20,646 nucleotides of DNA from a virus (lineage: Duplodnaviria > Heunggongvirae > Uroviricota > Caudoviricetes): IMG/VR virus record IMGVR_UViG_2700989509_000029, one strand, 5' to 3'. A program made the position numbers. Below are positions 18,001 through 20,646 of the stretch, in pieces (within the stretch, counting starts at the first letter, position 1; the number at the start of each line of letters is the position of its first letter).

Positions 18001-20646
18001 AAGGCCAGATGTGGAAAGGCCCCGGAAAACATTTCTGTTTAACCGAGGCCCTAACATATCTACCTTAAGCAAGTGATAGGTTAGCGCCTCTCCAACAAAG
18101 GAGCAAGCGCTATGTCGCAAAAATCGCTTACGGCCATCACGTTCTGCGTGACGGTAATCCTCATCATCTGGATGCTGCACGGTTCGCTGTGTGAAATACG
18201 GATGAGCTTCTGGGGAGCGGAGTTTGCGGCGTTCTTACAGTGTAAGCAGTAAGGAAACCGCGACGGGGGAGTAATCCCCCGTCAATCGGTTGCCAGGGTA
18301 AGGTCGATAAGGCACCCTATCTCACAGACATGAACAACAAGCCCGTAGCGTAAAAACTGCGGGTTTTCTTTTTGGTATCCCCATCCATAAGCAATAGGCA
18401 TAACAGATCGATGCAATAAATCCGATCGATAAAAACGATCGATTTGTTATCATATCGGCAGCAGTAACCACACAAGAGGTGCCGCAAATGACGCAAAATG
18501 TACGATGCAAAAATTGCAACAAACTACTTGCCCGCGCCTCATTTCACTACATTGAAATAAAATGTCCGCGCTGCAAAACACTTAACCAGATAACGAGAGC
18601 CATCGAGCACCCCACACACATGAGGAGTTATGACCGTGGGGATCGCAATCCAGCACCAACCAGCACATACACCGGAACACACTAAGGTTTATCAGACTGA
18701 CAATGCCATGCTCTGTCGTGGGAATGCGCTGGAAATATTGCCGCTGATTGAGCCAGAAAGCATTGATGCCTTAATCACTGACCCGCCTTACAGTTCGGGG
18801 GCGACACACAAGGCCGGACGCACCAACCAGGGCAGCCATGCAAAATATCTGAACGGCGAGAACCTTCACCGCTTTGATGGGTTCGCGGGTGAAAACATGG
18901 ACGCCCGTTCGTGGGCTTACTGGACACAATTATGGATGGCACAGGCACACCGCGCAGTCAGGCCGGGCGGTTATGCCCTGGTATTTACTGACTGGCGACA
19001 ACTACCAGCTTTAACCGATGCGTTTCAGGCCAGTGGCTTTACATGGCGCGGCATTATTGCGTGGAACAAAGGGAGGGGGTCACGAACACCACATACCGGG
19101 TATTTCCGGCATCAGTGCGAATACATCGTCTGGGGCAGCAAAGGCCATTTAGATAAATCGCCTTCGGGACCGTTCGACGGCTGCATGACGTTCCCGGTTA
19201 TCCCGTCAAAGAAAATGCACCCGACCGGAAAACCAGAAGAACTAATGGCGGAACTGGTCAGGACTGTGAATAGTGGCGGAACAGTCCTTGATCCTTTTAT
19301 GGGGTCAGGGACAACGGGTGTGGCTGCACTGAAAGCAGGACGCAAATTTATTGGTATAGAAACCAGTGATCATTATTTTGATGTAGCAACACAACGGCTC
19401 AAAACGGCGATCGAACCATAAGACAAAGCCCGCAATGTTGCGGGCTTACTCTACCTCTCGAAAATGTGGTCACTGCGTGGACATACGCTGATACAAATCC
19501 TTTTATATCAATAAATTAAATCTTTGTTTTTTTCATCAACAAGGATTTTCACGTTTGTGTTACCTGTATGAGACGAGAGTTAACCGGACAAGTGTGCCAT
19601 AATCTCGCGGCCAGGCATACTTGCGAAGATTTCAGGTATAAGGATACGTAATGATACAACCTATTTCCGGCCCTCCTCCTGGGCAACCACCAGGTCAGGG
19701 AGATAACCTGCCGTCTGGCGCGGGCAATCAGCCTTTATCCAGTCAGCAACGTACTTCGCTGGAAAGCTTAATGACGAAAGTGACCTCACTGACGCAACAG
19801 CAAAGAGCAGAACTGTGGGCGGGTATCAGGCACGATATTGGTCTGTCGGGAGATTCACCGCTGCTTTCGCGTCACTTCCCTGCCGCTGAACACAACCTGG
19901 CGCAACGTCTGCTGGCCGCGCAAAAAAGCCATTCTGCCCGCCAGCTTTTAGCGCAATTAGGGGAGTATTTACGTCTGGGGAATAATCGTCAGGCGGTCAC
20001 GGATTATATCCGTCATAACTTTGGTCAGACGCCGCTGAATCAGCTCTCACCGGAGCAATTAAAAACCATTCTCACCCTGTTGCAGGAAGGGAAGATGGTT
20101 ATTCCGCAACCGCAGCAGCGCGAGGCGACCGACCGTCCTTTATTACCGGCGGAGCACAATGCGCTTAAACAGCTGGTGACCAAACTTGCGGCGGCAACGG
20201 GGGAACCCAGCAAACAGATCTGGCAATCGATGCTGGAACTTTCCGGGGTGAAAGATGGCGAGTTAATTCCAGCGAAACTGTTTAACCATCTGGTGACCTG
20301 GCTACAGGCGCGTCAGACGCTAAGCCAGCAAAATACGCCGACACTGGAATCACTACAGATGGCGCTAAAACAACCTTTAGATGCCAGTGAACTGGCAGCG
20401 TTATCGGCGTATATCCAGCAAAAATATGGTCTTTCTGCGCAATCATCGCTTTCTTCTGCCCAGGCCGAGGATATTCTTAATCAGCTTTATCAACGGCGGG
20501 TTAAAGGGATTGATCCGCGTGATATGCAACCGCTGCTTAATCCTTTTCCACCGATGATGGACACGTTGCAAAATATGGCAACGCGTCCCGCGCTGTGGAT
20601 ACTGTTAGTCGCGATTATCCTGATGCTGGTCTGGCTGGTTCGTTAG

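Follow-up and report, generated by a model that had tools for sequence, protein, structure and literature searches.

A probable mom-operon-type cassette joining a Com-like zinc-ribbon protein to a beta-class DNA methyltransferase at the right end of a P2-like Escherichia coli prophage

The right end of a P2-like Escherichia coli prophage probably carries, as cargo, a DNA-modification cassette of the mom-operon type, in which a gene for a homologue of the phage Mu Com protein overlaps a gene for a beta-class DNA methyltransferase. The cassette occupies positions 18394-19447 of the IMG/VR record IMGVR_UViG_2700989509_000029 (Caudoviricetes), a stretch of 20,646 nucleotides (nt) referred to here, at its whole length, as the window, and it lies between ogr/hok and attR, the prophage right end. 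In the proposed mechanism, a promoter embedded in a Dam/OxyR-type triad of GATC sites would give a single transcript for com and the methyltransferase gene. Translation of com would be free, and the methyltransferase start region would be locked within a stable hairpin. Com, a zinc-ribbon RNA binder, would bind a CC(N)3GAG hairpin adjoining the 5' arm of this inhibition hairpin and open the latter, and the methyltransferase would be made only after Com accumulates. Expression of the methyltransferase would be off or low in the lysogen; the orphan N6-adenine (DPPY) enzyme would most likely shield phage DNA, while it replicates or once it is packaged, against the restriction systems of the host.

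The first gene, com (18488-18685, plus strand), encodes a Cys4 zinc-ribbon protein of 65 amino acids (aa). It scores 44.5 bits against the Pfam family Zn_ribbon_Com (PF10122; cut-off 22.9), matches PHROG 13819, 'gpCom control of modification' (E=2e-17), and shares 59.5% identity with Mu Com across residues 3-43, the zinc-ribbon part. The zinc ligands stand at the N-terminus in a CxxC-N15-CxxC arrangement (Cys7, 10, 26 and 29); they are invariant in the Com alignment and align with Cys6, 9, 26 and 29 of Mu Com. These matches confirm the Cys4 Com-like protein of about 65 aa that an earlier reading, made from the sequence alone, had proposed here. A search of the PDB with Com returned only chance zinc-ribbon matches to ribosomal protein eS27. 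The open reading frame (ORF) spans 18479-18685 when read from a GTG (68 aa). The ATG at 18488, which RefSeq uses, is the likelier start; GTG 18479 falls inside the com Shine-Dalgarno sequence AAGAGGUG (18474-18481, plus strand), which is read from the sequence 6-8 nt 5' of that ATG. RefSeq names the product (18488-18685; annotation in locus L001 of the comparative set, whose loci are cited by L numbers) 'Com family DNA-binding transcriptional regulator'. The name misleads regarding Com, which the literature describes as an RNA-binding translational activator (Nowacka et al. 2019, PMC6483171).

The second gene (18630-19421, plus strand) encodes a beta-class (DPPY) DNA methyltransferase of 263 aa, or 261 aa if translation begins at GUG 18636. 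The ORF is intact, with all motifs present. The protein matches PF01555 (N6_N4_Mtase) at 3.4e-33 and, in the same profile comparison, neither PF02086 (D12, Dam-like) nor the Mom family PF25680. DPPY at residues 51-54 is followed by FMGSGTT at 223-229, the beta-class motif order, and both motifs are invariant in the methyltransferase alignment; the beta-class DPPY assignment of the sequence-only reading therefore holds. The closest solved structure, a distant match, is the Helicobacter pylori DpnA-like 5HEK (E=8e-21, full-length alignment). The enzyme belongs to a very large family of phage-borne beta-class methyltransferases of about 250 aa: of 8000 candidate database proteins that were scored, 7485 reach E<=1e-10, and members appear in 689 phage records. 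It matches PHROG 67, and its score against NCBIfam PRK13699 (101.6 bits) is well under the cut-off of 244. Small beta-class phage and plasmid methyltransferases of this kind (PHROG 67, PRK13699 relatives, M1.HpyAVI 5HEK) share its fold family, motif order and short target-recognition region, but differ in that most lack com and an N-terminal leader of about 20 aa. In the window enzyme, residues 1 to about 20 form this non-conserved leader, encoded in the com overlap; the conserved domain, at whose start most homologues begin, starts where com ends. PADLOC returned only generic Type II or orphan methyltransferase models for the enzyme and none for Com. Close homologues lacking com are found elsewhere: in further P2-like prophages of E. 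coli the gene stands right behind ogr, and a Mu-like prophage of Salmonella has it between its holin and lysozyme genes (L173:1151-2295; L175:1307-2786).

The methyltransferase is classed as an orphan because no endonuclease gene is adjacent: hok/gef lies on its upstream side, and on the downstream side the prophage ends and flk follows. The earlier description of it as an orphan was thus correct. DPPY, as opposed to SPPY, suggests N6-adenine methylation, and the motif in the window enzyme suggests that it too is N6-adenine specific. A short or degenerate target is a reasonable guess by analogy, because the lysogen-silent prophage enzymes Hia5, Hin1523, Nma1821, M.EcoGI/II and Csal_1401 proved to be promiscuous N6-adenine methyltransferases. 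The Smp131, Xanthomonas single-molecule real-time sequencing and restriction-modification review papers give no target specificity for this family. The window enzyme may be promiscuous, or toxic when cloned.

The start region of the methyltransferase gene lies within a predicted translation-inhibition hairpin (18610-18641, plus strand), identified by folding and by homology to Mu. Its outer stem pairs CCCCAC with GUGGGG, its inner stem pairs CAUGA with UUAUG, and its GGAG loop is the core of the Shine-Dalgarno sequence. The hairpin contains the whole Shine-Dalgarno sequence GAGGAG (18622-18627), AUG 18630, paired in the inner stem, and GUG 18636, paired in the outer stem. It is predicted to be more stable than its Mu counterpart (-13.2 versus -6.8 kcal/mol). 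When a 300-nt transcript is folded as an ensemble, the unpaired probability is 0.00 for both AUG 18630 and GUG 18636 and 0.77 for the com AUG. A local 61-nt fold beats 196 of 200 dinucleotide shuffles (z=-2.44); a larger fold of 18560-18720 gives no signal (z=+0.60), and the informative scales are the local 61-nt and transcript folds. The sequence-only reading had placed the methyltransferase ribosome-binding site GAGGAG within com, described an overlap of about 56 nt between the two genes, and called for a search for a stem-loop hiding this site or the start. The site is present, such a stem-loop is predicted, and the overlap measures 56 nt from AUG 18630 or 50 nt from the in-frame GUG 18636.

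The hairpin is homologous to the Mu structure, beyond mere similarity, because the GAG, CCCAC and GUGGG columns are invariant and in register when the window is aligned with Mu and with four further cassettes from enterobacteria. The GUGGG 3' arm also begins the coding sequence of three unrelated enterobacterial payloads: Mom, a C5 methyltransferase and the beta-class methyltransferase of the window. The payload frame opens at the 3'-arm GUG in Mu (GKEKK...), in Edwardsiella (L009; GIKAK...) and in the C5 methyltransferases (GNKKH... / GNKQQ...), and one database cluster representative of the window methyltransferase is likewise called from GUG (MGIAIQ...). A Yersinia relative retains both AUG and GUG. 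GAGGAG stands 2 nt from AUG 18630 and 8 nt from GUG 18636. On these comparisons, GUG 18636 appears at least as likely as AUG 18630 to be the methyltransferase start. The proposed mechanism is independent of this choice, because both starts are sequestered.

The recognition motif of Com has been defined by systematic evolution of ligands by exponential enrichment (SELEX), electrophoretic mobility shift assays and SHAPE (selective 2'-hydroxyl acylation analysed by primer extension)/footprinting as CC(N)2-3GAG / GAG(N)2CC in a short hairpin loop; SELEX with Com gives the bipartite motif GAG(N)2CC (PMC6483171). The Mu site adjoins the translation-inhibition structure, and the mom GUG start codon lies within the stem of that structure (PMC6483171). 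The predicted Com binding site of the window, GAGAGCCAUCGAGCACC (18595-18611, plus strand), is the single match to GAG-NN-CC-NNN-GAG-NN-CC in the 20.6 kilobases (kb) of the window, where 0.04 would be expected. It includes a short hairpin with a CC(N)3GAG loop, a closing C-G pair and one mismatch, GAGC-CAUCGA-GCAC (18597-18610), just 5' of the methyltransferase start region. An Rfam scan of the com-methyltransferase region found no family, returning only a sub-threshold sok match and a chance CsrC match. The putative Com-responsive RNA element goes unseen by standard annotation because no Rfam family covers window positions 18590-18645.

Conservation of this element was followed in 45 genomic loci with a Com homologue and in 24 viral contigs with the enterobacterial hairpin. 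The latter came from a pattern scan of IMG/VR that gave 120 matches, mostly chance; the 24 with an upstream Com ORF were used. The Com site recurs across these loci at a constant distance past the CPRC codon, often as two tandem hairpins, and 32 distinct versions of the form NNGC-C(N)2-6GA-GCNN were found. The outer two pairs are complementary in nearly all 32 despite sequence change (GG/CC, AG/CU, AU/AU, AC/GU, GC/GC, UC/GA and UU/AA), and a fifth pair forms in only two. In the 14 versions with a six-nucleotide loop, both partners vary in three of the four pairs, and pairing holds in 92.9% of cells; none of 500 shuffles reached this covariation score, and slid controls collapse. The search pattern fixed the two inner pairs, so the real test of covariation is limited to the outer two. 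The RNA motif also falls in differing com reading frames by lineage (GCC AUC GAG in the window, G CCA UCG AGC in phage B3), which points to selection at the RNA level.

In about 60 of the loci, com is overlapped or followed by DNA-modification enzymes of four unrelated families: Mom (PF25680) and the D12 (PF02086), C5 (PF00145) and N6_N4 (PF01555) methyltransferases. The Mom controls match PF25680 at 2e-74 to 2e-75, and the Com-linked D12 enzymes of L010 and L012 match PF02086 at 3e-29 and 9e-35. Among the com-linked N6_N4 enzymes are near relatives of the window enzyme from many P2-like prophages of Xanthomonas. A single com variant, its hairpin nearly unchanged, precedes either Mom or a C5 methyltransferase depending on the viral contig (L073, L088, L114, L139 and L148 versus L005 and L128), and the similarity between the Mom and C5 contigs stops a few codons past the GUG start. 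The whole mom control region, from the GATC/OxyR site through com and its two hairpins (Com-binding and inhibitory) to the GUG start, moves as one portable block, and payloads are swapped at the start codon. These comparisons suggest that a regulatory cassette was recombined onto a methyltransferase that is common among phages. Taken together, the Com motif at 18595-18611, the Mu-homologous hairpin and the GUGGG common to three payloads support, as motif and fold predictions, the Com-type translational control that had been proposed for this methyltransferase.

The Xanthomonas and Neptunomonas cassettes (L022:2603-2675 and L013:2596-2650) are arranged otherwise. Their free-RNA fold pairs the Com-site sequence itself with the payload Shine-Dalgarno sequence or AUG (z=-2.6 and -4.4), and Com binding and start sequestration would therefore be mutually exclusive. 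On this modelling, they would follow the same logic in another geometry, as a protein-operated alternative-structure switch and not an adjacent hairpin. Some Com homologues of Pseudomonas and Desulfovibrio precede ORFs outside DNA modification, such as a weakly B_lectin-like protein of 315 aa (L040:2501-3566; also L047, L049 and L050). The CC(N)2-3GAG motif is missing from some. Payloads of other kinds may also be under the control of Com-like proteins.

Upstream, an intrinsic-terminator-like hairpin and T-run (18339-18366, plus strand; a 10-bp stem with five G-C pairs and the tail TCTTTTTGGT) closes the hok/gef unit, and the com operon therefore needs a promoter of its own. The sole promoter-like site found in 17900-19700 is a candidate sigma-70 promoter (18426-18453, plus strand) with a -35 element TCGATA, a 16-nt spacer and a TGn-extended -10 element TATCAT. 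The TGnTATCAT sequence is kept in Salmonella (L006) and Yersinia (L171). This candidate overlaps the second and third sites of a GATC triad (18394-18443, strand unassigned), recognized by spacing and consensus, in which GATCGAT stands at 18406, 18424 and 18437 over OxyR-consensus-like sequence and occurs nowhere else in the window. The spacing of 18 and 13 nt is the same in the window, in Mu and in the Yersinia locus, and GATC II and III are invariant in the alignment with Mu and the enterobacterial cassettes. Scored against the OxyR consensus ATAGnTnnnAnCTAT-N7-ATAGnTnnnAnCTAT, the top four of 41,000 positions lie at 18394 and 18403 with 15/20 matches; the homologous Mu site has 13/20. In Mu, the mom promoter is preceded by three GATC sites, which reportedly make up an OxyR site that is occupied only if unmethylated. 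Judged by alignment and spacing, the triad of the window is the positional homologue of that Dam/OxyR control region. The 27-34-nt Mu segment that bears the C-dependent promoter, between the GATC triad and com, is absent from the window, where it appears as an alignment gap. The window prophage has ogr, and a C/Mor gene is not expected in a P2-like phage.

Several points limit the case for a Com-operated lock on this methyltransferase. The Com hairpin of the window has an A.A mismatch at its third pair and is weak, at only -0.5 kcal/mol alone, as are those of its closest relatives; RNAfold favours another 3-bp register for it. The outer stem of the inhibition hairpin is invariant among relatives and so lacks covariation support. 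When the Com site (18595-18612) was forced single-stranded in silico, the GUG stayed paired, so Com-driven opening is not reproduced by this simple model, a result that does not count against the mechanism. Close homologues of the methyltransferase exist without com, and Com control is therefore not intrinsic to the family. The promoter and OxyR site are consensus matches only, a P2 Ogr-type TGT-N12-ACA site sought upstream of com was not found, and the searched literature held no experiment on this locus.

The architecture upstream of com bears on when the cassette would fire. With the C-dependent promoter of Mu gone and a candidate sigma-70 extended -10 promoter lying across the GATC/OxyR site, behaviour like that of the agn43 Dam/OxyR switch is conceivable. 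In a combined form that is unlikely, stochastic firing in the lysogen would make this a phase-variable prophage methyltransferase that creates epigenetic subpopulations of the host, with a second lock, formed by Com and the hairpin, setting a threshold. If true, Com and its RNA switch would amount to a portable, protein-operated translational lock that phages can join by recombination, right at the start codon, to any enzyme of DNA modification. The switch could also be taken by itself, as phase-variable or constitutive expression in the lysogen that methylates host DNA in a subpopulation and serves an epigenetic function rather than a lytic-late one only. The promoter-like sequence over GATC II and III, the 15/20 OxyR matches over the triad, the loss of the Mu promoter/C-site segment and the lack of an Ogr-type site upstream all agree with this; the very stable inhibitory hairpin, however, argues for tight shut-off, and the promoter and OxyR site are again matches to a consensus. 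Expression of this kind is rather improbable.

Plain translational coupling would dispense with Com as an RNA-binding activator: ribosomes translating com would melt the hairpin at 18610-18641 on their way and thereby permit initiation at the methyltransferase start. The whole hairpin and both candidate starts do lie inside the com frame, 44-75 nt before the com stop, overlapping genes are the classic setting for coupling, and the imperfect Com hairpin of the window fits such a view. It is hard to explain in this way, however, without protein-RNA binding, why the Com motif and its hairpin are kept with compensatory changes across lineages and frames. In Mu, moreover, Com reportedly activates mom translation through binding to the mRNA. 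Coupling as the sole mechanism is rather improbable; coupling and Com binding could act together. That Com is here a DNA-binding transcription factor and the methyltransferase overlap incidental is very improbable, for the RefSeq label is the only point in its favour, whereas the literature describes an RNA-binding translational activator (PMC6483171), the conserved element is an RNA hairpin with compensatory changes, and no conserved DNA operator is seen besides the OxyR/GATC region.

The mom-operon-type arrangement shares much with Mu com-mom: the Com zinc ribbon, a com gene that overlaps the payload in the +1 frame, a Com-binding hairpin directly 5' of a hairpin whose GUGGG 3' arm bears the payload start, and, upstream, three GATC sites spaced 18/13 nt apart that lie over a site of the OxyR type. 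It differs in its payload (a PF01555 methyltransferase versus Mom, PF25680), in a hairpin about twice as stable, in an extra AUG 6 nt before the GUG, in the absence of the C-dependent promoter segment, and in its P2-like, not Mu-like, carrier.

A methyltransferase in place of Mom is already published. In phage B3 (ORF47/ORF48), a Com homologue overlaps a DNA adenine methyltransferase (PMC3299994), and in FluMu, Pnm1 and Haemophilus aegyptius com is followed by the promiscuous methyltransferases Hin1523, Nma1821 and Hia5, which replace mom (Drozdz et al. 2012, PMC3299994). These Com-linked enzymes from Mu-like prophages have activity, are not expressed in lysogens, and protect DNA from many restriction enzymes; for hin1523 the authors pointed to possible Com binding sites, and they proposed a regulation resembling that of Mom (PMC3299994). 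They share with the window a com homologue and then a DNA methyltransferase at the mom position. They differ in being Dam-like D12 enzymes, aligned to M1.DpnII and EcoDam (PMC3299994), in Mu-like prophages, versus a beta-class PF01555 enzyme in a P2-like phage. The beta/PF01555 class, the P2-like carrier and the shortened promoter architecture are what sets the window apart from the published cases. The significance is mainly confirmatory: a pairing of Com with a methyltransferase, known from print, now covers a beta-class enzyme as well as phages of the P2 type, with the evidence for a portable cassette and the covariation support for the Com hairpin as useful by-products. The searchable literature contained no paper dissecting the variant of the window, and the Smp131 paper enters the methyltransferase-adjacent gene only as hypothetical.

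Other E. coli prophages carry comparable enzymes. M.EcoGII and M.EcoGI are described as adenine methyltransferases without sequence specificity, which the lysogen does not express and whose expression is toxic; like the window enzyme, they are beta-class DPPY orphans on E. coli prophages (Murray et al. 2018, PMC5778455). M.EcoGII differs in length (349 versus 263 aa), and the passages of that paper considered here mention neither a com gene nor translational control. Identity of the window enzyme with M.EcoGII is rejected on length alone, by the figure given there.

The prophage setting is that of P2-like cargo. Across the right part of the window, which is the prophage right end, the gene order is tail sheath and tube, gpD, an ORF with a PIN_12 domain (16505-17575), ogr (17660-17920), hok/gef (18112-18252), com, the methyltransferase gene and the chromosomal flk. 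The com-methyltransferase pair is the final prophage module ahead of attR, which lies in the intergenic stretch between pdxB and flk, about 108 nt past the methyltransferase stop (window about 19422-19530). DNA common to all 5426 complete E. coli genomes begins at about 19530, which places the prophage between these two genes. A G+C-rich palindrome (19426-19447, strand unassigned), read from the sequence right after the methyltransferase stop, may mark the end of the operon.

The pair is intact in 171 of the 5426 complete genomes; about 3% of complete E. coli genomes carry a methyltransferase that is expected to look silent in methylome surveys. The pair also occurs outside these genomes, in Escherichia phage Chuche (PP925824, 34.5 kb), which has been isolated; there Com is 100% identical to that of the window and the methyltransferase, 98.9% identical, sits just upstream of the integrase gene. 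The two genes are already labelled Com and DNA methyltransferase in RefSeq and in phage Chuche.

Some observations concern the neighbouring genes and the wider distribution of the cassette. The gene for the 356-aa PIN_12-domain protein (16505-17575, plus strand) occupies a place where P2-like phages carry cargo, flanked by gpD and ogr; neither PADLOC nor PHROG gave a match, and a role in defence or as a toxin, so far uncharacterised, is conceivable. Ahead of hok/gef 18112-18252 stands a match to sok-like RNA (window 17965-18252, plus strand), whose 47.9 bits fall short of the gathering score of 59 for Rfam RF01794. A 34-kb 'plasmid' record, NZ_CP148288.1, carries the cassette and is probably an excised phage genome. 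An enterobacterial com-methyltransferase cassette, 92% identical, appears in an assembly given a Gram-positive assignment ('Vagococcus sp. WN89Y', NZ_JBQPOM010000071.1; L007), where contamination or a wrong assignment of the assembly is the probable cause. The hok-com-methyltransferase block recurs in a prophage of Yersinia kristensenii (L171).

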